Positions 2,494 through 55,030 are shown, counted from the first letter of the stretch. The stretch is 64,000 nucleotides of DNA from Vicinamibacteria bacterium (GCA_050246895.1 JBFWVE010000001.1:826722-890721), one strand, 5' to 3'. Notes: generated by a model not told the origin, from the letters alone. Numbers and translations: made by a program.

Positions 2494-2853
2494 TCAGGCG
2501 GGCGTCGCGGCGAAGTGCTCGCGCAGCGACTTCTCGATCTCCGGCGCCGTGATGTCCCAGTTGTCGCGGTCGAAGACCGGCCGTCCGTGCTTGAACAGGA
2601 TCAGCTGCGGCGACTCGTGCGTGATGCCCGTCAGCGCCGCCACGTGGTTGCTGGCCTGCCGCCACTCGACGACGCGGATCATGCCGAGCATCAGGTCCTC
2701 GCGCGGGCCGAGCGTCGCCTCGACGTGAGCGAAGCTCTCCTGGGTCTTGTGGCACACGCCGACCTTGAACAGGGCCGAGTCGGGGTTCGCTTTCAGGAAG
2801 GCGTCGACTTCGTCGGGGGTGGTGAGGAACTGGATGCGGTCCTTGAGCGCCAA
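2494..2853 (-). CDS. YtxJ/DUF2847-family thioredoxin-like protein (bacillithiol-system type)
   Basis: This is the C-terminal 119 aa of track ORF 2494..3354; the rest of that ORF overlaps the MBL gene. A TTG start at 2853 follows a GAAGGAGG RBS. Both ...[15 protein letters not shown]... and ...[30 protein letters not shown]... align with YtxJ (FKHSTTCPIS ... HESPQVLLIKNGKVVWH..ITAD). Confidence 0.65.
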
Positions 2854-23909: not shown

Positions 23910-24974
23910 TCAGGCCCGCAGCAGCACGGCGCCCCAGTGCAGGCCGCCGCCGATGGCGACCATCAACACGAGCTGCCCGGGCTTGATGCGGCCCTCGCGC
24001 ACGCACTCGTCCCAGAGCAGGGGAATCGTGGCGGCGGTGGTGTTGCCGTACTTCTGGATGTTGCTGTAGACCTTCTCGTCGGGCAGGCCCAGCGACTTCT
24101 GCACGTAGCTGTTGATGCGCAGGTTGGCCTGGTGCATCAGCACCATGTCCACGTCGCCGAGGCTGTAGCCGTTGCGCTTCAGCAGCTCCTGTGACACCTC
24201 GGCCATGTGGATGGTCGCCAGCTTGAAGACCGCGCGCCCCTCGACGATCGGGATGTGGTCGCCGCGGTCGAGCTGCGCCTTGTCCACGTACGGCATGTGC
24301 TTGAAGCCGACGCCCGGCACGTAGAGCCGCTGATACTCGCGCCCGTCCGTGCGCAGGATCGAGTCGATCACGCCGCGCCCGTCGCCCTCCTGCGCCTTCA
24401 CGACCACGGCGCCCGCGCCGTCGCCGAACAGCACGATGCGGTCGCGCAGGGTCGTGTTGAAGGCGTAGTCCTCTGCGGAGACGGGCTCCTCGCGCCGCCC
24501 GTAGATGCGGTCCCAGCTCGCCTGCGAGTACGGCATGAAGCCCGCGTGGATCTCGGCGCCGATCAGCAGCACCGTCTTCGCGAAGCCCGCCCGGATCTGC
24601 GCGTCCACCAGCTGCATGCCGTAGACGAAGCCGACGCACTGCTGGCGGATGTCGAAGCACGGCGCGTTCTGGATCTCGAGCTTGGCCTGGACGATGCCCC
24701 CGATGCCGGGGAAGTAGTGGTCCGGCGTCATCGTGGCGCAGACGACGAGATCGACCTCGTCCTTGGAGACGCCCGCCGCCTCGAGCGCCTTGCGCGCCGC
24801 CGCGGCGCCCAGGTCGGAGGTCGCGGTGCCAGGCGTGATGTAGTACCGCGTCTCGATGCCGCTGCGCTCGCGGATCCACTCGTCGCTCGTGTCCATCACG
24901 CGCGCGAGCATCTCGTTGGTCACGCAGTTGGGCGGGATCTCGCGGCCACTGCCGACGATCACGGAGCGCGGCAT
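23910..24974 (-). CDS. fabH: 3-oxoacyl-ACP synthase III (KAS III)
   Basis: MPRSVIVGSGREIPPNCVTNEMLARVMDTSDEWIRERSGIETR... aligns along its full length with FabH, including the Cys-His-Asn regions. Confidence 0.85.
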   Translation of the reverse strand: MPRSVIVGSGREIPPNCVTNEMLARVMDTSDEWIRERSGIETRYYITPGTATSDLGAAAARKALEAAGVSKDEVDLVVCATMTPDHYFPGIGGIVQAKLEIQNAPCFDIRQQCVGFVYGMQLVDAQIRAGFAKTVLLIGAEIHAGFMPYSQASWDRIYGRREEPVSAEDYAFNTTLRDRIVLFGDGAGAVVVKAQEGDGRGVIDSILRTDGREYQRLYVPGVGFKHMPYVDKAQLDRGDHIPIVEGRAVFKLATIHMAEVSQELLKRNGYSLGDVDMVLMHQANLRINSYVQKSLGLPDEKVYSNIQKYGNTTAATIPLLWDECVREGRIKPGQLVLMVAIGGGLHWGAVLLRA

Positions 24975-25166: not shown

Positions 25167-25607
25167 ATGCTCAAAGTCGGCGACGCCGCGCCCGACTTTC
25201 CGATCGGCGAGACGACGCTGCAGCGCATCCTGAAACAGCGCGAGGTGGTGGTCTTCTTCTTCCCCAAGGCGTTCACCCCGGGCTGAACGCGCGAGGCCGG
25301 CGGGTTCCGCCGGAACTATGACGCGCTGCGCCAAGCGGGCGCCGAGGTGGTCGGCGTGTCGGCGGACAGCCAGCAGCGCAACGACGAGTTCGCGCGCTCG
25401 CTGGAGCTGCCGTATCCGCTGGTCGGCGACCCGCAAGGCCGCATCCTGGAGGCCTACAGGGCGAAGTGGCCGGTGATCGGCATGGCCCAGCGCGTGAGCT
25501 ACGTGATCGGCCGCGACGGGCGCGTGCGCGAGGCCTACCGCAGCGAGCTCGACGCCGAGTCGCACGTCGCCCAGGCCTGCTCCGTGCTGTCGACGCCCGG
25601 CAGCTAG
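25167..25607 (+). CDS. Bcp/PrxQ-type peroxiredoxin with in-frame UGA (25284-25286) at the peroxidatic-Cys position; predicted selenoprotein
   Basis: The frame reads MLKVGDAAPDFPIGETTLQRILKQREVVVFFFPKAFTPG-TGA-TREAGGFRRNYDALRQAGAEVVGVSADSQQRNDEFARSLELPYPLVGDPQG.... It is collinear with E. coli Bcp, where ...YFYPKAMTPGCTVQAC... places Cys at the TGA. Track ORF 25347..25607 is the tail of this frame. A SECIS-like hairpin follows the UGA. Confidence 0.6.
25297..25313 (+). promoter_or_regulatory. SECIS-like hairpin (CCGGCGG-GUU-CCGCCGG) starting 10 nt 3' of the UGA in the Bcp-like gene
   Basis: A perfect 7-bp stem with a G-U-U apical triloop, seen directly. Position and shape match bacterial SECIS elements. 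Confidence 0.45.
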
Positions 25608-25644
25608 CCCTCGGCCGGCCGCGCGGTGCTAGCCTTCGTGCCGC

Positions 25645-26340
25645 ATGCCGTCGGTCAGCATCGTGTTCCCGATGTACAACGAGGAGGCCTACATCCACCG
25701 CGCCGTGCGCGCGGCGCGGGCGGCGCTCGCCCCGATCACCGAGGACTGGGAGATCGTGATCGTCGACGACGCCTCGAGCGACCGCACCGGCGCGCTGGCG
25801 GACGAGCTGGCGGCCGCCGAGCCGCGCATCAAGGTGGTCCACAACGCGCGCAACCGCCAGCTCGGCGGCTCGCTGCGGGCGGGTTACGCCGTCGCCACGA
25901 AGGAGCTCGTCGTCTACACGGACGCCGACCTGCCGTTCGACCTGATGGAGCTGCCTCGCGCCGTGCGGCTGCTCGAGTACCAGGAGGCCGACGTGCTGTC
26001 GGCCTTCCGTTTCGACCGCCGCGCGGAAGGCATCCGCCGCACGGCTTACACGCTCGTCTACAACGCGCTGATCCGGACGCTGTTCGGCCTCAGCTTCAAG
26101 GACGTGAACTTCGCCTTCAAGCTCTTCCGGCGCTCGCTGCTCGAGCGCTTCGAGCTGAAGAGCGAAGGCAGCCTGATCGACGTCGAGTTCCTGGTTCGCG
26201 CCCGAAAGGCCGGCGCTCAGATCATCCAGATCGGCGTCGACTACTTCCCGCGCACGCGCGGCGTCTCGACGCTCTCCTCGCCCGCAGTGATCCTGGGGAT
26301 CCTGCGCGAGCTCGCGCAGCTCTGGCGCGAGCTGCGCTAG
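25645..26340 (+). CDS. GT2-family glycosyltransferase (polyprenol-phosphate mannose/glucose synthase-like)
   Basis: ...VFPMYNEEAYIHRAV... and ...EIVIVDDASSDRTG... give the DxD-type GT-A fold. Length is 231 aa. The stop overlaps the convergent gene's stop at a CTAG. Confidence 0.85.
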   Translation: MPSVSIVFPMYNEEAYIHRAVRAARAALAPITEDWEIVIVDDASSDRTGALADELAAAEPRIKVVHNARNRQLGGSLRAGYAVATKELVVYTDADLPFDLMELPRAVRLLEYQEADVLSAFRFDRRAEGIRRTAYTLVYNALIRTLFGLSFKDVNFAFKLFRRSLLERFELKSEGSLIDVEFLVRARKAGAQIIQIGVDYFPRTRGVSTLSSPAVILGILRELAQLWRELR

Positions 26341-26999
26341 GCCTCGGCGGCCTTCTTGACGTGCTCGAGCAGCATCGTCTCGGGGCCGGCGCCCACGAAC
26401 TCCTGCGCCTCGCCGACCACCGTCTTCGGCACGCCCGAGATGCGGTACCTGCGCGCGAGGTCGGGGTAGCCCGTGACCTCGACGCCGTCGGCCGTGACCT
26501 TGTCGCTCTCGATCGCGAACTGGATCGCCAGGCGGACCGCCCGGGGGCAGTGCGGTCAGGTCGGAGTCGAGAAGACCTGGACGTGGACGGGCTTCTCGAG
26601 CGCCGCCAGGGCTTCCTTCGTCGCCGGCTGCAGCTGGCTCTCGCCGGCCGAGACGTCGAGGATGGCGTCGATCAGCGAGCCGAACTCGTAGCCGCTCGGC
26701 ATCCCGTACATGCGGATGCCGAAGTCCTTCTCGGCGCCCAGCACCGCGATCGCGGGGATGCGCGCGATGCCCATCGCCTCGGCCTTGTCCTTGTCGAGCA
26801 CGTAGTTGTACGACTCGGCCGTGAGCTTCGGGTGCAGCGCGCCGAGCTCCTCGACCAGCCGCCGCACCTGCTCCGAGTTCGGATCCGCGAGCGTCTGCGA
26901 GAAGACGGCCAGCCGCACCGGGTTCTTCAGCGACTCGAACTCCGTCTTGAGCTGCGACGCGACGTCGTCTGAGATGAGAGCCATGCTGCGTCCTTTCAC
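26337..26999 (-). CDS. Two-thioredoxin-fold protein (PDO/AhpF-N-terminal-domain-like) with UGA (26556-26558) as first residue of a UxxC redox motif; predicted selenoprotein
   Basis: Track ORF 26556..26999 ends ...HVQVFSTPT at a TGA. The same frame continues PHCPRAVRLAIQFAIESDKVTADGVEVTGYPDLARRYRISGVPKTVVGEAQEFV... (cis-Pro 'GVPKT' of thioredoxin folds) to TAG at 26337. TPT-U-PHC-P is a textbook Sec-x-x-Cys motif. A SECIS-like hairpin follows. Confidence 0.6.
26528..26544 (-). promoter_or_regulatory. SECIS-like hairpin (CCGGGCG-GUC-CGCCUGG) starting 11-12 nt 3' of the UGA in the thioredoxin-like gene
   Basis: A 7-bp stem (one G-U pair) with a G-U-C triloop, the same architecture as the hairpin in the Bcp-like gene. 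Confidence 0.45.
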
Positions 27000-27149
27000 G
27001 AGCAGTATAGCGCCGCGCTTTCGGTCGGGCCGCCCGGCCTCAGCGCGCCCGGCCGAGGATCAGCACGCCTGCAGCGAGCGTCAGCAGCGTGACCGGAACG
27101 CCGACGCGCAGGTACTCGCCGAAGGCGGACGCCGACGGTCAGCACGCCG

Positions 27150-28382
27150 TCAGATCCAGGTGGGGAACCAGGTCCAGGGCCGGACACCGCGGCCGAAGTC
27201 GTGGAAGAACCAGCTCGCGCGGAACGGGATGCCCAGCAGCAGCGGCAGGAAGTAGACGTAGACGGCGAGCGCCAGCGCGAGGTAAGCGCGCGCCCAGCCC
27301 CGCTGCGGGCCGTCCCAGTGGCGGTCGAGCAGGGCGCCCAGGGCGAGGCAGGCGTACGGGATCGCCTCGAACAGGTAGTGCGAATAGTTGAGCGTGCGCG
27401 GCGACAGGCCCCACGGCAGGTACAGGCAGAAGAAGCCGGCGCCGCAGAAGAGCAGCGGCCCGCTGCGCTCGCGCGCGGCCAGGACGAGCGCCCAGATCGC
27501 CGCCGCCAGCGACGACCACCACAGCACCGGGTTGCCGATCGCGATGATGCCGGCGACGACTTCGCCCGTCTGCTTCCAGTAGTACCAGGTGGGCCGGTAG
27601 AGCCACGGCCAGGTGTACCAGTTGCTGAAGTAGGGATGGCTCGCCCGCAGGTTGGCGTGGTAGCCCCAGATCGCCCTGGTGTGCGGCCACAGCTCCCCGA
27701 GCGCGTGGCCCTGCCGCATCCAGGGCAGGTAGCTGGCGACGTAGAGCACGAGCGGCAGCAGGAAGAAGGCCCAGAACAGCAGCGCCAGCTCGCGCGGACG
27801 GAACAGCCGCGCGCGGCGCGTGCCCAGCATCACCAGGCCCAGGAAGCCCCAGGCCCACAGGCTGGTCCAGCGCGTCGACAGCGCGAGGCCGAGCGCCAGC
27901 CCGACCGCGCTCATGTCGAGAGTCCCGAGCCGCTCGCGTGCGGCGGCGCGCACCACCAGCAGCGCCGCCAAAAGCTGGAAGAGCACCGCGAAGATGTTGG
28001 TCATCGCGACGCGGCTCTGGACCAGGTAGACGCCGTCGCAGAGCAGCAGCGCGGAGGCCAGCAGCGCCGCGCGCTCGGTCGCGAGCACGCGGCGCGCCAG
28101 CAGGTAGAAGACGGGGGCGAGCAGGATGCCCGCGAGCGCCGGGGCCAGCCGCCAGCCCCAGGCGTCGTAGCCCAGGAAGTGGACCCCGATCGCGATCAGA
28201 AGCTTGGCGGTCGGCGGGTGCACCCACTCGGTCGGGGCCGTGCCGTTCAGGTACTCGAGCGCGGTCTTCGCGTGGTAGACCTCGTCGAAGATCTCCTCGT
28301 TCGGCAGGCCGAGGCGCGGCAGGCGGAAGGCCGCCGCCACCAGCGCCAAGAGCGAGGCGGTGCGCAGGTCGCGGGAGCTCAG
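27150..28382 (-). CDS. GT39/PMT-family protein O-mannosyltransferase-like (phospholipid-carrier-dependent glycosyltransferase)
   Basis: The first TM segment (RTASLLALVAAAFRL) is followed by the loop-1 DE motif (NEEIFDEVYHAKTALEYL), then multiple TM helices. No ATG, GTG or TTG lies in frame upstream of the first TM segment. A CTG that shares TG with the upstream gene's TGA stop (cTGA) is the best candidate start, so the start coordinate is uncertain. Confidence 0.7.
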   Translation of the reverse strand: MSSRDLRTASLLALVAAAFRLPRLGLPNEEIFDEVYHAKTALEYLNGTAPTEWVHPPTAKLLIAIGVHFLGYDAWGWRLAPALAGILLAPVFYLLARRVLATERAALLASALLLCDGVYLVQSRVAMTNIFAVLFQLLAALLVVRAAARERLGTLDMSAVGLALGLALSTRWTSLWAWGFLGLVMLGTRRARLFRPRELALLFWAFFLLPLVLYVASYLPWMRQGHALGELWPHTRAIWGYHANLRASHPYFSNWYTWPWLYRPTWYYWKQTGEVVAGIIAIGNPVLWWSSLAAAIWALVLAARERSGPLLFCGAGFFCLYLPWGLSPRTLNYSHYLFEAIPYACLALGALLDRHWDGPQRGWARAYLALALAVYVYFLPLLLGIPFRASWFFHDFGRGVRPWTWFPTWI

Positions 28383-46614: not shown

Positions 46615-47805
46615 TCAGGCCTGCTGCTGCGTCTGCGCGGCCTCGTGCTGCCACGGCGGCAGCAGCTTCACCAGCAGCCACAGGATGCCGAAGGGCAGCA
46701 GCATCACCAGGATCGCGGGCAGCATTCCCTCGCGCGTGGCGAAGCCCATCTTGTAGGTCGTGTAGCCGAGGAAGCTCTTCGAGAAGAGCTGCCCGCCGAT
46801 CACCACGTTCCAGCGCATCGCGAAGATCCCGATCAGGGTCAGCGCTCCCGCCAGCACGTAGAGCCCGCGGCGGGCGGCGCCCGACAGGTTGACCACCTGC
46901 ACGAAGGCCAGGATCGCGATCGGCAGCACCGCGCCCAGCATGATCTGCAGCACGATCTGCGACGTATAGAGCTTGGTGTGCACCATGAAGTCGAGCGTCT
47001 TGAAGGACTCGTCGGCCTCGTAGATGCGGTGCAGGATGTCGAGCAGCTCCAGCGAGAAGTCGACCACGAACGCGTAGAGCAGGTAGCGCGCGGTGGTGTC
47101 GACGCAGCTCATGTCGATCTGCCGGCCTTTTAGCCAGGTGACCAGCATGTACATCAGCAGCACCAGCGCGATGCCCGAGACGATCGCCGAGAACAGGAAC
47201 ACGATCGGCATCAGCGGCGTCGACCACCAGGGGTTCGCCTTGATCGAGCCGAAGATGAAGCCGACGTAGCCGTGCAGCAGGAAGGCGGAGGGGATGCCGA
47301 TCAGCGTCACGAACCAGCCGACCCTGTCGTCGACGCGCAGGGCCCCCTCGCTGATGTTGTCGGAGCCCAGCGTCAGCGCCTTGTAGAGCAGCCGCCTCGG
47401 CCCGCTCGAGCTGCGCGCGAGCAGCACGATGTCCTTGCGGTAGTCGAGCCAGATCTCCAGCAGCAGCACCGCCATCAGGTACCACAGGTAGACGAAGCCG
47501 AACATCGCCATCGCCGACGAGGTGTGCGGCGTGAGGTACATCTCGAACGAGCGCTCCGGCCTGCCGAGGTGCATCTGCAGCGGCAGCGGCGCGACGATCA
47601 GGAACGACAGCGCCGTCAGCAGCGCCAGCCGGTAGGTGGGCTTGACCGCCTCGACGCGGAAGATCCGCTCCAGCGAGGCCAGGATGAAGGCGCCGGCCAC
47701 CAGCCCCGTGATGAACGGGTAGAGCACGATCAGGACACTCCACTGCAGCTCGATCTCGTTCGGGTACATGAAGCCTTCGACGCCGTGCAGCAGGCTCTCT
47801 TGCAT
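46615..47805 (-). CDS. NrfD/PsrC-family quinol-interacting membrane subunit
   Basis: The 396-aa protein has 8-10 TM helices (…LVIAPLPLQMHLGRPERSFEMYL…) typical of NrfD/PsrC, and sits downstream of the FeS subunit. Confidence 0.9.
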   Translation of the reverse strand: MQESLLHGVEGFMYPNEIELQWSVLIVLYPFITGLVAGAFILASLERIFRVEAVKPTYRLALLTALSFLIVAPLPLQMHLGRPERSFEMYLTPHTSSAMAMFGFVYLWYLMAVLLLEIWLDYRKDIVLLARSSSGPRRLLYKALTLGSDNISEGALRVDDRVGWFVTLIGIPSAFLLHGYVGFIFGSIKANPWWSTPLMPIVFLFSAIVSGIALVLLMYMLVTWLKGRQIDMSCVDTTARYLLYAFVVDFSLELLDILHRIYEADESFKTLDFMVHTKLYTSQIVLQIMLGAVLPIAILAFVQVVNLSGAARRGLYVLAGALTLIGIFAMRWNVVIGGQLFSKSFLGYTTYKMGFATREGMLPAILVMLLPFGILWLLVKLLPPWQHEAAQTQQQA

Positions 47806-47815
47806 GTGGCTCTCC

Positions 47816-48580
47816 CTAACGCACCGAGCCGTCGAGGCCCGCGTAGTAGACCTTGGAGCCCGTCGCCATCTGCGGCTTCAGCACCTGCACCTTGTGCGTG
47901 CGCAGGAACTCGTGGATCGGGTCCGCCGGGTTCTTGAGGTCGGCCAGCACGCGCGCGCCGGTCGGGCAGCTCTCGCAGCAGGCGGTGGTCAGCCCCTTGG
48001 TGATGCGGTGGTAGCAGAGGTTGCACTTGTCGACCGTGTTGGTGCGCGGGTCGATGAAGCGGCACCCGTAGGGGCAGGCCTGCACGCAGTAGCGGCAGCC
48101 GAGGCAGTAGGACTTGTCCACCAGCACGACGCCGTCCGGGGACTCGAAGGTGGCCCCCACCGGACACACCTGCACGCAGGGCGAGTGCGCGCAGTGGTTG
48201 CACAGCTTGGGCACGAAGAAGTTCTTGGAGCCGTCGCCCGGGCGGTACTTCTCGGGGAAGCCGTCGTAGCCGCCGTTCGGCGAGTCCACCTGCGGGTGCT
48301 CGATGTCGCCGCCCGGCACGTGGTAGCGCTCGACCCAGGTCCTGAAGTAGTACGGTTCGCGCGGGACGTCGTTCTCTTCCTTGCAGGCGCGCACGCAGTT
48401 GCCGCAGCCGATGCACTTCTCGACGTCGATCGCCATCGCCCACCAGTGCTCGCTGAGCTTGTAGTTCGGGGCGGCCTCGGGCGTGCCCGCGAGCACGCTG
48501 TCCCAGGCGCTGGCGGCGGCTCCCGTCAGCAGCAGCCAGGTCGTCGACTTCGCGAGGAACTCCCGGCGGTCGGTAGTCAC
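47816..48580 (-). CDS. 4Fe-4S ferredoxin-type subunit (NrfC/PsrB/DmsB-like) with Tat signal
   Basis: A GTG start follows a GGAGGA RBS. The Tat-like …TTDRREFLAKSTTWLLLTGAAASA and four CxxCxxCxxxCP clusters (CIGCGNCVRAC, CNHCAHSPCVQVCP, CLGCRYCVQACP, CNLCYHR…CCESCP) are present. Confidence 0.85.
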   Translation of the reverse strand: MTTDRREFLAKSTTWLLLTGAAASAWDSVLAGTPEAAPNYKLSEHWWAMAIDVEKCIGCGNCVRACKEENDVPREPYYFRTWVERYHVPGGDIEHPQVDSPNGGYDGFPEKYRPGDGSKNFFVPKLCNHCAHSPCVQVCPVGATFESPDGVVLVDKSYCLGCRYCVQACPYGCRFIDPRTNTVDKCNLCYHRITKGLTTACCESCPTGARVLADLKNPADPIHEFLRTHKVQVLKPQMATGSKVYYAGLDGSVR

Positions 48581-49050
48581 TTGCGTTCCTCCGGTGGCGA
48601 GCCGGGCTCGTGCGGCGAGTGGCACTCGATGCACAGACCCGTCTCGGCGTGGTCCTTGGGCACGATCTGCGGGAAGCTCGCGGGCTTGGCGACGTTCGCG
48701 ACGTGGCAGACGAGGCAGGTCGTGCGGCCGTCGGGCCGCGCGGGCTTCTGCTCCGGGTCCGCGGCGTGGGCGGCGAGGGCGCCGTGGCAGGCTTCGCAGG
48801 CGACGCGCGCGTGCTTGCCGGCCGCTCGCTTCGTGCCGACGTCGTCGTGGCAGGCGAGGCAGTCGGCCTGGCCGGCGAACCTGGCCGGGCGGACCTGGTT
48901 GTCCGCGATCGCGCCGGCGCGGAAGTGGCCGTACACGCCGAAGTCCGCCGGCACCAGGAACACCCGGGCCAGCAGGAACAGCGCGATGCCGGCGACGCAC
49001 AGCCCGGCCACGCGCACGAGGTGGTCGGCGTCCCGGAACAGCTCTCTCAT
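48577..49050 (-). CDS. Membrane-anchored tetraheme c-type cytochrome (NrfH/cyt c3-like)
   Basis: An N-terminal TM helix is followed by four CxxCH motifs (CLACH, CEACH, CLVCH, CIECH). The stop overlaps the FeS-subunit start. Confidence 0.8.
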   Translation of the reverse strand: MRELFRDADHLVRVAGLCVAGIALFLLARVFLVPADFGVYGHFRAGAIADNQVRPARFAGQADCLACHDDVGTKRAAGKHARVACEACHGALAAHAADPEQKPARPDGRTTCLVCHVANVAKPASFPQIVPKDHAETGLCIECHSPHEPGSPPEERK

Positions 49051-49288
49051 GCGGTGAGGTCTCCTTCTCTCGCGGGGACGAGAAGCCCTGGTTGCGCGTT
49101 GCTCGCTGGATGACTACGGGCGACTGGGGCGTTAGGTCAGCAAGAGCCGTTCCGGCCGCCTCCGGCCCGGCTACCGGCCTCGCCGCGACAGGAATGCGGG
49201 CGAAAGACGCGCCCTGCGCGCAAAACGCGCGCGCATCGTGCGTTCTGTCTGCTTGGGTCGCCTCGGCCGCTCTCGCGAGCCCCGGCCG

Positions 49289-51293: not shown

Positions 51294-51557
51294 CTACACG
51301 TTCCAGTGATCGACGATCCCGACGATCGCGGCGTCGGCGGGCACGTCGTCGGGCAGGAAGGGGAAGCAGGCCTCGCGGCCGCGCACGTAGAAGACGTCCT
51401 CGCCGGCGCCGGCGCCGACCGAGTCGACCGCGACCAGGGGCTTGCCCGCGGACGAGCGGTCGGTGCGCAGCGGCTGGATCAGCAGCAGCTTGATCCCGCT
51501 GAGCCCGGGATCCTTGCGGGTGGCGACCACGGTGCCGACGACGCGGGCGAGCAGCAC
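51294..51557 (-). CDS. BMC vertex (pentamer) protein, EutN/CcmL/PduN family, paralog 2
   Basis: MLLARVVGTVVATRKDPGLSGIKLLLIQPL...; 87 aa. Confidence 0.85.
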   Translation of the reverse strand: MLLARVVGTVVATRKDPGLSGIKLLLIQPLRTDRSSAGKPLVAVDSVGAGAGEDVFYVRGREACFPFLPDDVPADAAIVGIVDHWNV

Positions 51558-51561
51558 GGCC

Positions 51562-51831
51562 TCAGTCCTTGACCTCGACGCTGTCGACGACGCCCACCAC
51601 CGCCGCGTCCACGGGGCAGTCCTTGAGGCCGGACGCCATCCGCGCGGAGGAGCCGGTCACGATCAGCACCTTGTCGCTGAGACCCGCATCCACCGTGTCG
51701 ACCGCCACCATGTAGGCCGCTTCGTCCTTGCCCCTCGGGTCGACCTGGCGCACCACCAGCAGCTTCGCCCCCAGCAGGCGCTCGTCCTTGCGGGTGGCGA
51801 CCACGGTGCCGACGACGCGGGCCAGGATCAA
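51562..51831 (-). CDS. BMC vertex (pentamer) protein, EutN/CcmL/PduN family, paralog 1
   Basis: MILARVVGTVVATRKDERLLGAKLLVVRQV...; 89 aa. Confidence 0.85.
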   Translation of the reverse strand: MILARVVGTVVATRKDERLLGAKLLVVRQVDPRGKDEAAYMVAVDTVDAGLSDKVLIVTGSSARMASGLKDCPVDAAVVGVVDSVEVKD

Positions 51832-51835
51832 ACGC

Positions 51836-52120
51836 CTACTTCGCGGCCTTGCCGATCGGCAGCACGTCTTCGAGGTTCGCGTGCGGCCGCGGGATCACGT
51901 GGACCGAAACCAGCTCGCCCACGCGGCGTGCGGCGGCGGCGCCGGCGTCGGTGGCGGCCTTGACGGCCGCGACGTCCCCGCGCACGAGTGCCGTCACGTA
52001 GCCCGAGCCGATCTTCTCGTAGCCGACCAGCGTGACCTTGGCGGCCTTCACCATGGCGTCCGCAGCCTCGATCATGGCCACGAGACCCCGGGTCTCGATC
52101 ATCCCCAGCGCTTCACCCAT
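51836..52120 (-). CDS. BMC hexamer shell protein (BMC-H; PduA/EutM/CcmK family)
   Basis: [56 protein letters not shown]... is the canonical BMC-domain sequence. Confidence 0.9.
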
Positions 52121-52217
52121 GCAGCCTCCCTGCGGCCTTCCCGGTTCTCGTCCCTTCGAAAGACCCTGACTCTACCCCCCGCGGAGGGCCCGTCAAGTCG
52201 GCCCGGAGCGGCCCTCG

Positions 52218-52991
52218 TCAGCGCTGGCCCCCGGAAAAGCGCGCGACCGCCTCGCTCACGATCCGCAGCAGCTCGTCGCGCGACAGCACCACGCGGTCCT
52301 CGCCGCCGACGCTCACGCTGGTGCCGCACGACGGGCAGGGCACGCAGGCGGGCGGCGGGTAGCCCGCGCTCGTCCGCATCGACTCGAGCCGGGCGACGTC
52401 CCCGGCCGGCAGCGGGCGCTCGACCCCCAGGCTGCGCGCCGCGAGGGTCACCCGCGCGAGCTGCTCCAGCGTCTCCATGCGCTCCCAGGCGCGCAGCAGG
52501 CCGTCGCCGACGGCCAGCGCACCGTGGTTCGCCAGCAGCAGCGCGTGGGCGTCGCAGATGGCGTCCCCTACGTTGCGCGCCAGCTCTTCGGTCGACGGCG
52601 TGCCGTAGGGAATCACCGGCACCGGCCCCAGCGTCACCACCGCCTCGGCCGTGATCGGCCGGTCGAGCGGGATGCCCGCGACGGCGAAGGCCGTGGCCGT
52701 CGGCGGGTGCGCGTGCACCACGGCCTTCACGTCGGAGCGCCGCTCGTAGATGGCCGCGTGCATCAGCGTCTCGGTCGAGACGCGCAGCGTGCCCGAGACC
52801 CGCGCGCCGCGCAGGTCGGCGCGCACGATCATGTCGGGGGTCAGGAAGCCCTTGCAGACGCCGGCGGGCGTGATCAGGATGCCCTCGGCGTCGCGCAGCG
52901 AGATGTTGCCCTCGTTGCCGCTGATCAGCCCGCGCGCGTAGAGGCGGCGCCCGACCTCGACGATCGCCTCGCGCGCGGCCCGCTCGTCCAA
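52218..52991 (-). CDS. Class II aldolase/adducin-family protein (fuculose-phosphate-aldolase-like) with ~50-aa C-terminal extension
   Basis: ...GNEGNISLR..., ...AVVHAHPP... and ...LLANHGALAVG... are the class II aldolase motifs. The C-terminal tail PPACVPCPSCGTSV...SRDELLRIVSEAVARF contains an amphipathic helix. Confidence 0.85.
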   Translation of the reverse strand: MDERAAREAIVEVGRRLYARGLISGNEGNISLRDAEGILITPAGVCKGFLTPDMIVRADLRGARVSGTLRVSTETLMHAAIYERRSDVKAVVHAHPPTATAFAVAGIPLDRPITAEAVVTLGPVPVIPYGTPSTEELARNVGDAICDAHALLLANHGALAVGDGLLRAWERMETLEQLARVTLAARSLGVERPLPAGDVARLESMRTSAGYPPPACVPCPSCGTSVSVGGEDRVVLSRDELLRIVSEAVARFSGGQR

Positions 52992-53000
52992 GCGCCGCTC

Positions 53001-53897: not shown

Positions 53898-54938
53898 CTA
53901 CGACCAGTTGACGCCTGACCAGCGAAGCAGCACGGTGCCGACGGTGAAGCCGGCGCCGACGCTGGCGAGCAGCACCAGGTCGCCCTTCGCCAGGCGCTTC
54001 TCGTCGAGGGCGGTCGCCAGCGCCAGCGGGATGGTGGCCGCCGTGGTGTTGCCGTAGCGGTCGATGTTCCTGATCACGCGCTCCTCGGGCAGCTTCAGCC
54101 GGTCCTTGGCGGCGTCGATGATGCGCAGGTTCGCCTGGTGCGCCACGAACAGGTCGAGCTGCTCCGACGGCACGCCGTTCTTCTCGAGCAGTGCCTTCGA
54201 GCTGTCGGCCATCTTGCGCACCGCATACTTGAAGACGTGGCCGCCCTCCTGGCGCACGAAGTGCATGCGCTGGTCGACCGTCTCGTGCGAGGCCGGCTTC
54301 GCGCTGCCGCCGGCGGGCATGTGCAGGTAGCAGCCGCCCGAACCGTCCACCTCGTGCGCGTAGTCGAGGATGCCGGTGTCGTCCTGCGAGGGCTCGAGCA
54401 GCACGGCCCCGGCGCCGTCGCCGAACAGCACGCAGGTCGCGCGATCCTGGAAGTCGAGGATCGAGGTCATCACGTCGGCGCCGATCACCAGCACCTTCCC
54501 GTGCGCCCCGCTCTCGACGAACTGGGCGCCCACGGTGAGCGCGTAGGTGAAGCCCGAGCAGGCCGCCGAGACGTCGAAACCCCAGGCCCGGCGGGCGCCC
54601 AGCTTGTCCTGCACCAGGCACGCGGTGGCGGGGAAGACCATGTCCGGCGTGACGGTGCCGACCACGATCAGGTCGATCTCCTCCGGCCCCACGCCGCGCC
54701 GCTCCAGGCACTCCCGCGCCGCCCGCAGCGCGAGCTCGCTGGTGGGCGTGCCGGGCTCGGCGTAGCGGCGCTCGCGGATGCCGGTGCGCGTGCGGATCCA
54801 TTCGTCCGTGGTGTCGACGATCTTCTCGAGATCGGCGTTGGTGACGACCCGCTCGGGCAGATAGCGTCCGAGGGACGTGATGGCCGCTCGCTTGCGCGTC
54901 ATGCTCCTCTTCTCTTTCCGGGAAACCGGGCCCTGCAA
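53898..54938 (-). CDS. 3-oxoacyl-ACP synthase III (KAS III), second paralog
   Basis: ...[43 protein letters not shown]... is FabH-like throughout. The alternative start Met at 54902 ([12 protein letters not shown]) is more typical than the track start. Confidence 0.8.
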
Positions 54939-55030
54939 CGGGCCCCAGGCGCCCCGTGACGGGCGCTTCGTGACGGGAAGTATTAGACCCGAAGCCGCGC
55001 CGCCGGAGCAAGTTAGCTAGACTCCGGCCC

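Follow-up and report, generated by a model that had tools for sequence, protein, structure and literature searches.

Two predicted selenoprotein genes of known thiol-redox families, a BCP-type peroxiredoxin and a PDO homologue, as probable chance neighbors in a genome fragment of the Vicinamibacteria

Selenocysteine (Sec) replaces the catalytic Cys in several families of bacterial thiol-redox enzymes. The Sec-containing peroxiredoxins (TxxU motif; COG1225/BCP-type) were catalogued by Zhang, Gladyshev and co-workers and have a verified example, PrxU of Eubacterium acidaminophilum. Peroxiredoxins of COG1225 appeared among the selenoproteins with 43 Sargasso sequences (PMC1088965), and the prokaryotic selenoprotein catalogue holds both PF00578 proteins with a TxxU motif and TIGR02187 proteins with a UxxC motif (PMC13188914). 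Acidobacteria are already known to have selenoproteins. We have analyzed a stretch of 64,000 nucleotides from a Vicinamibacteria bacterium (GCA_050246895.1, JBFWVE010000001.1:826722-890721; hereafter the window) in which a peroxiredoxin gene (Prx) and a gene for a PDO homologue lie close together, each interrupted by an in-frame TGA. Both add members to known families, from a lineage that is new for them, and escaped the public annotation; the pair does not reveal a new kind of system. We consider it very probable that they are two independent selenoprotein genes whose adjacency is accidental. Our literature search found no paper that links the Vicinamibacteria with Prx or PDO selenoproteins. 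The two genes and their elements are as follows.

25167-25607, plus strand: gene of a Sec-containing BCP/PrxQ-type peroxiredoxin (Prx), 146 codons with one TGA read through.
25284-25286, plus strand: UGA (predicted Sec) codon of Prx, in place of the peroxidatic Cys; Cys homologues have FTPGCT at this site.
25297-25313, plus strand: predicted selenocysteine insertion sequence (SECIS) hairpin of Prx, CCGGCGG-GUU-CCGCCGG; spacer of 10 nt, 17 nt from the UGA to the apical loop.
26337-26984, minus strand: gene of a Sec-containing homologue of PDO and of the AhpF N-terminal domain (PDO), 215 codons, active site U-P-H-C.
26528-26544, minus strand: SECIS-like hairpin of PDO, CCGGGCG-GUC-CGCCUGG; spacer of 11 nt, 18 nt from the UGA to the apical loop.
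26556-26558, minus strand: UGA (predicted Sec) codon of PDO, in place of the first Cys of CxxC; the codon is TGC in the Cys forms L003, L004 and L016 (relatives are designated throughout by such locus numbers).

The read-through translation of Prx (MLKVGD...FFFPKAFTPG-U-TREAGGFRR...AQACSVLSTPGS) matched PF00578 (AhpC/TSA) over residues 4-122 with 100 bits, against a cut-off of 26. Its active site, P33-KAF-T37-PG-U40 in the context FPKAFTPG-U-TREAGG, is the published Sec-Prx motif PxxxTxxU (PMC13188914) with the peroxidatic residue at the UGA. All the top matches in the PDB were Bcp/PrxQ proteins, first 3DRN (Bcp1 of Sulfolobus solfataricus, 7e-24) and then 5ENU, 5EPF and 2A4V, while the scores stayed under the NCBIfam equivalog cut-offs (PRK09437, 70 bits versus 140; PrxQ, 68 versus 260). 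The gene resembles the catalogued Sec-Prx family in the AhpC/TSA fold, the PxxxTxxU motif, the UGA at the peroxidatic position and a hairpin inside the open reading frame (ORF) just downstream. Unlike PrxU it is BCP-like (33 bits with NF040737, whose cut-off is 270), and it differs from the catalogued members by its origin in the Vicinamibacteria (Acidobacteriota) and by having Gly instead of the resolving Cys at position +5 (U-T-R-E-A-G). Gly is found at this usual resolving-Cys site in the window and in the whole clade and, since there is no resolving Cys there, the protein should be a 1-Cys(Sec)-type BCP. A Cys near the C-terminus (C139) is kept in many relatives, although not in all of them. 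The enzyme would reduce peroxides by way of a selenenic acid intermediate.

The second protein (...VHVQVFSTPT-U-PHCPRAVRLAIQFAIESDK...; UGA context VFSTPT-U-PHCPRAV) scored 238.5 bits with the NCBIfam equivalog TIGR02187, 'PDO_seleno_TRX', above its cut-off of 185 and over residues 6-212 of 215. It aligned end to end with the PDO of Pyrococcus furiosus, 1A8L (residues 1-211 versus 1-223, 4.5e-40), and by this alignment it is predicted to consist of two thioredoxin-fold units in one chain. The C-terminal UxxC (T-P-T-U-P-H-C-P) aligned with TPTCPYCP of 1A8L and with the Cys homologues. The N-terminal unit has no CxxC and carries SQTLADPNSEQV where the P. furiosus protein and the relative L003 have CQYC. 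The predicted sole redox center of this protein is thus the C-terminal U-P-H-C, in which respect it is like the AhpF N-terminal domain. As in the described examples of TIGR02187 there are two thioredoxin-fold units with Sec first in the C-terminal CxxC; the differences are that it forms a new lineage, in soil Vicinamibacteria, and that it does not have the N-terminal site of the classical archaeal PDO with two active sites. The gene conserved beside it codes for a PMT-family glycosyltransferase and not for a thioredoxin reductase (TrxR). It would act as a TrxR-dependent reductase of disulfides or selenenylsulfides.

The original prediction had placed in-frame UGAs at the catalytic Cys of two redox enzymes about 1.3 kb apart, and both were located, at a distance of 1,272 nt. 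The GC content of the window is 72%, and these were its only two in-frame TGAs with a coding signal on both sides (high GC at third codon positions, GC3, and low GC at second positions). GC3 remained at 0.93-1.0 after each of them, and no further selenoprotein candidate with such a TGA was found in the window. The interruption is conserved in both families. A protein search with PDO returned more than 30 homologues with 75-100% identity, all of them stopping at residue 142, together with full-length Cys forms of up to 77% identity. A TGA at the same codon followed by an intact downstream frame was found in 10 Sec-PDO lineages (L001, L002, L007, L009, L010, L074, L083, L119, L123 and L124). For Prx, metagenomes were scanned for the exact pattern FTPG-TGA-TREA, which gave 97 stretches, about 92 of them genuine Prx homologues with 32-66% identity. 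The close Cys homologues of Prx read FTPGCT, with TGC at the site of the UGA. Both UGAs are almost certainly Sec codons. If so, abundant soil Vicinamibacteria would use Sec in at least two cytoplasmic thiol-redox enzymes, and the conserved UGA and hairpin are what points to a Sec-decoding trait of the host.

The public record MGE0452809.1 (AB7O37_03540, 'hypothetical protein') is identical to the 142-aa N-terminal fragment of PDO, indicating that the public annotation ends the gene at the UGA. Our analysis corrects this record, which presents PDO as a hypothetical protein of 142 aa and omits Prx entirely. Both selenoprotein genes were split by gene callers in every metagenomic contig examined, and the same annotation error is found in about 100 metagenomic contigs from soil Acidobacteriota.

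Each UGA is followed by a hairpin. As had been described before, the two are nearly identical, with 7-bp GC stems and a GUN triloop, and the spacers, previously given as 10-12 nt, measured 10 and 11 nt. Hairpins of this design, defined by a GUN triloop and a 7-bp stem in which no more than one pair is G-U, number 8 over the two strands of the 64 kb, and 2 of them are the Prx and PDO elements; with so few hairpins, and with only two TGAs having a two-sided coding signal, the coincidence of UGA and hairpin is indeed unlikely to be due to chance, as the original prediction held. In the published model of the bacterial SECIS (bSECIS), the apical loop measures 3-9 nt and lies 16-37 nt from the UGA, on a stem of 4-16 bp (PMC13188914). 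The first two loop positions should include a G, as a rule with G or U after it, and the minimum free energy (MFE) should be -7.5 kcal/mol or lower (PMC13188914). The Prx and PDO elements have apical loops of 3 nt in both cases, upper stems of 7 bp in both, distances to the loop of 17 and 18 nt, loops reading GUU and GUC, and MFE values of -12.7 and -10.5 kcal/mol, respectively. They share with the bSECIS consensus the small apical loop beginning with G-U and the 7-bp upper stem, and differ from it in being very compact: they have a triloop and lack both a bulged U and a conserved lower stem. All 60 Prx sequences and all 10 PDO sequences have the loop G. SelB carrying Sec-tRNA(Sec) would bind the hairpin loop and deliver Sec to the UGA, as in the established bacterial mechanism, and we propose that the two hairpins are alike because both must fit the same SelB. 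The compact consensus (UGA-N10-11, 7-bp stem, GUY loop) could serve to mine the selenoproteome of the clade.

In Prx the RNA structure is under selection. The hairpin in its 42-nt context folded with a z-score of -2.85, and across 48 distinct sequences 93.5% of the stem cells were paired, versus 31-57% when the partner columns were slid. Two stem pairs showed compensatory double changes from G-C to A-U (in 5 sequences and in 1 sequence). The synonymous sites tell the same. The third codon positions within the hairpin (Ala+4, Gly+5 and the loop G of Gly+6) were invariant in 60 of 60 sequences, with an entropy of 0, whereas just beyond it the four-fold sites of residues that are no less invariant had entropies of 1.2-1.6 bits. 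Synonymous sites that are frozen inside the hairpin and free outside it are direct evidence of selection acting on the RNA, and the Prx data provide a clean example of such freezing driven by a SECIS.

An Arg-to-Cys change (CGC to TGC) was also seen in the 3' arm of the Prx hairpin at column 25 of alignment A1, in L025, L055 and L115, where a G-U pair is kept; in these three sequences the RNA pairing appears to have been kept at the expense of the protein sequence. Apart from this, Sec-BCP proteins of another clade are present in the metagenomes. They share about 40% identity with the window Prx, read UTREA[KRC][GR]FRD at the active site and use a different and longer SECIS: a UUCCGCG/CGCGGAA stem located about 17 nt further from the UGA and a 7-nt loop. 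This second clade comprises the loci L020, L028, L043, L047, L050-L052, L056, L065, L070, L084, L091-L098, L101, L107 and L108. Some of its members have Cys at +5, and none has FabH, GT2 or PDO nearby.

For PDO the stem was invariant in the 10 distinct Sec forms, with 98.6% of the cells paired, and only the third loop base varied (C, U or G). The Cys forms of PDO encode the corresponding peptide, PRA(V/T)RL, through other codons and without such a hairpin. The assignment of this hairpin is suggested by its position, its GU loop, the frozen synonymous sites and its likeness to the Prx element.

The genes around Prx and PDO have been compared with those of the relatives. In the window they are the following.

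23910-24974, minus strand: FabH (KAS III), the conserved divergent neighbor of Prx; a FabH paralogue is found at 53898-55016, minus strand.
25645-26340, plus strand: GT2 polyprenyl-phosphate glycosyltransferase-like gene (ArnC/DPM1-like), PF00535, 3e-30.
27055-27135, minus strand: 3' remnant of an ArsB/CitMHS-family permease gene, 27 codons; tblastn with the L007 permease gave 81% over 27 aa, E = 2.9e-7.
27150-28382, minus strand: PMT-family (GT-C) polyprenyl-phosphate-sugar-dependent glycosyltransferase, PF02366, PF16192 and PF13231.

The two selenoprotein genes had been thought to flank two glycosyltransferases. In fact GT2 is the only one between them, and the PMT-family gene lies beyond PDO, followed by a small lipoprotein gene and then by a GAF-histidine kinase (HK) gene. 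Prx is separated by a 37-nt gap from GT2, with which it is probably co-transcribed; the matches of GT2 to the NCBIfam models of ArnC and dolichyl-P hexose transferase were under their cut-offs. A TATACT box of the -10 type (27004-27009, minus strand), about 20 nt upstream of the PDO start and kept in the window, L007 and L009, suggests that PDO has its own promoter. A generic scan of 24.9-28.5 kb for sigma-70 promoters and terminators called nothing, the TATACT box included, so the operon structure rests on the gaps and on this conserved box. GT2 and PDO are convergent, and both end on a palindromic CTAG (26337-26340), with stops overlapping by 4 nt; the same scan detected no intrinsic terminator at these convergent ends. 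A single operon of Prx and PDO is ruled out by the convergent orientation and the overlapping stop codons.

Among the relatives, Prx and PDO belong to two different blocks. Prx was divergent from FabH in 30 of 49 loci with flank, and in 19 of the 37 relatives with enough flank Prx was followed by GT2 at no more than 900 nt. Whether in the Sec or the Cys form, PDO is always the last gene of a block that runs HK-lipoprotein-PMT-(ArsB/CitMHS permease)-PDO, and PMT was its immediate upstream neighbor in all the Vicinamibacteria-like loci with flank except for one Cys locus without DNA (where an FHA/trypsin gene takes its place). Direct contact of the two blocks, with PDO lying next to Prx-GT2, is confined to the window and L009 (PDO 92% identical). 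In L007, with a Sec-PDO 96% identical, another gene follows PDO and there is no Prx nearby; seven further Sec-PDO lineages have no adjacent Prx either (including L001, L002, L010, L119, L123 and L124), L001 and L002 having FabH near PDO and no Prx. From the other side, 24 metagenomic Sec-Prx loci had a downstream flank of 2 kb or more, and in none of them was PDO found within 2 kb. The contig scan with the PDO protein gave 6 loci, too few for genome-level statistics of co-occurrence. Synteny of the two genes in relatives, named beforehand as what a module should show, has largely failed to appear.

The lineage of the window would have lost the genes that lie, in relatives, between the FabH|Prx-GT2 and HK-lipoprotein-PMT-(permease)-PDO blocks. 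A trace of this is seen in the gap between PMT and PDO, where the permease remnant (FGEYLRVGVPVTLLTLAAGVLILGRAR followed by the stop) is located. The permease gene is intact between PMT and PDO in L007 and L010-L014, and the remnant therefore indicates a recent deletion at this spot in the lineage of the window. The closeness of Prx and PDO looks like a local accident of gene order, and the comparison does not support a conserved module.

The Prx-GT2 and PMT-PDO pairs are kept in both Sec and Cys forms (L016, L116 and L021-L114). GT2 is of the polyprenyl-phosphate sugar synthase type, and with PMT it gives the impression of a donor synthase paired with a transferase. This pairing may explain why the two blocks stay in one neighborhood, and a link of the redox proteins to envelope glycosylation is possible; neither is separable from shared ancestry.

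Some of the data weigh against two independent selenoproteins brought together by accident. The PDO hairpin shows no covariation, the test being silent because the stem is invariant. An alternative PDO fold that includes the UGA was paired at 93% and is the MFE structure of the isolated 42-mer, and with an invariant stem covariation cannot separate the described hairpin from this competing fold. No Rfam SECIS family was matched in the scan of the window, a result that says nothing either way, given that no Rfam family fits these elements. The genes selA, selB, selC (tRNA-Sec) and selD were not found within the 64 kb by Rfam, ARAGORN and a Pfam survey of most of the window ORFs, confirming in these scans what had been noted from the sequence for selA, selB, selD and tRNA-Sec. 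Besides, Prx and PDO share one neighborhood of about 10 kb in several relatives: they are 4.7 kb apart in L074, 8.3 kb in L083 and 9.2 kb, with six genes in between, in an all-Cys relative (L016 and L116, on one contig). There may be a loose functional link between Prx and PDO in view of this shared neighborhood.

The strongest alternative is the one first proposed, a compact selenium-dependent thiol-peroxidase module in which Sec-PDO is the specific reductant of Sec-Prx and the two genes are kept together for that purpose. There is biochemical precedent. In S. solfataricus the TrxR/PDO system regenerates Bcp1, Bcp3 and Bcp4 (PMC7465337), with the C-terminal PDO site carrying the transfer activity (PMC7465337), and the closest solved structures to the window proteins are P. 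furiosus PDO (1A8L) and S. solfataricus Bcp1 (3DRN). Prx, without a resolving Cys at +5, needs an external reductant, and PDO keeps only its C-terminal redox site, the one used on AhpC in AhpF and as thiol-transferase in S. solfataricus PDO. The Sec or Cys status was also concordant in 5 of 5 contigs with both genes (Sec/Sec in the window, L009, L074 and L083, Cys/Cys in L016 with L116). However, this concordance is expected merely from the Sec trait of a genome. The gene order described above speaks against the module: adjacency is limited to the window and L009, L007 has no Prx beside a 96%-identical PDO, six other named lineages (L001, L002, L010, L119, L123 and L124) have no adjacent Prx, and the count for PDO near Sec-Prx was 0 of 24. 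Being convergent, the genes do not form an operon, and a -10-like box of its own is conserved upstream of PDO. No TrxR is found nearby either, the Pfam survey of most window ORFs having detected none. We consider a dedicated module unlikely.

The comparison with the Sulfolobus TrxR-PDO-Bcp system and with AhpF-AhpC of Salmonella and E. coli goes in both directions. As in those systems, the window codes for a homologous double-thioredoxin protein and a Bcp-type peroxiredoxin; unlike them, both proteins have Sec, there is no reductase nearby and the genes are not conserved neighbors. Electron transfer between the two is put forward from homology to the Sulfolobus system. A role of PDO as reductant of Prx is plausible from homology, and gene order adds nothing specific to it. 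A more specific version, with Sec-PDO as the physiological, TrxR-driven reductant of the 1-Sec BCP in an all-selenium relay whose partners are each co-transcribed with one half of a glycosylation pathway, seems unlikely to us. In such a relay Prx-SeOH and PDO-Se- may form a transient Se-Se intermediate, resolved afterwards by the PDO Cys. If it were true, the co-transcription of Prx-GT2 and PMT-PDO would link envelope glycosylation to redox control in the Vicinamibacteria.

It is very improbable that the UGAs are read as Cys or another residue by a tRNA(Sec)-like opal suppressor (a selC* tRNA-Cys) or by an acidobacterial allo-tRNA. The selC* tRNA(Cys) of deltaproteobacteria may be an opal suppressor, and allo-tRNAs of Acidobacteria may suppress nonsense codons, although no selC* has been reported in Acidobacteria (PMC5389517). 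Against suppression, both sites are catalytic Cys positions, Sec forms of both families are documented, the SelB-type bSECIS model accommodates the hairpins, and plain Cys codons are available and in use among close relatives. That one or both TGAs are true stops, in pseudogenes or genes split by a Cys-to-stop mutation or an assembly error, has a negligible probability in spite of the public annotation ending PDO at the TGA and of the gene callers splitting both genes in all metagenomic contigs, given that the same TGA recurs in dozens of independent contigs with 32-99% protein identity and intact downstream frames, which rules out the pseudogene reading, that GC3 stays at 0.93-1.0 after each TGA, and that selection acts on the hairpin and its synonymous sites.

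Some other features of the window deserve mention. A third thiol-redox protein, previously described as YtxJ-like and using Cys, is indeed Cys-based; its strand, which had not been given, is minus, and its family is BrxC.

2494-2853, minus strand: monothiol bacilliredoxin of the BrxC/YtxJ family, PF11009, 1.4e-21.

Long ORFs occupy both strands at 44.7-46.6 kb and match no Pfam family. They adjoin the genes of an NrfD-family membrane subunit and a multihaem cytochrome c (c7/c3-like), found together at 46615-49113 (minus strand). Finally, a bacterial microcompartment shell cluster is located at 51294-53000 (minus strand), beside a universal stress protein gene, and codes for one BMC-domain protein, two EutN/CcmL vertex proteins and a class II aldolase.

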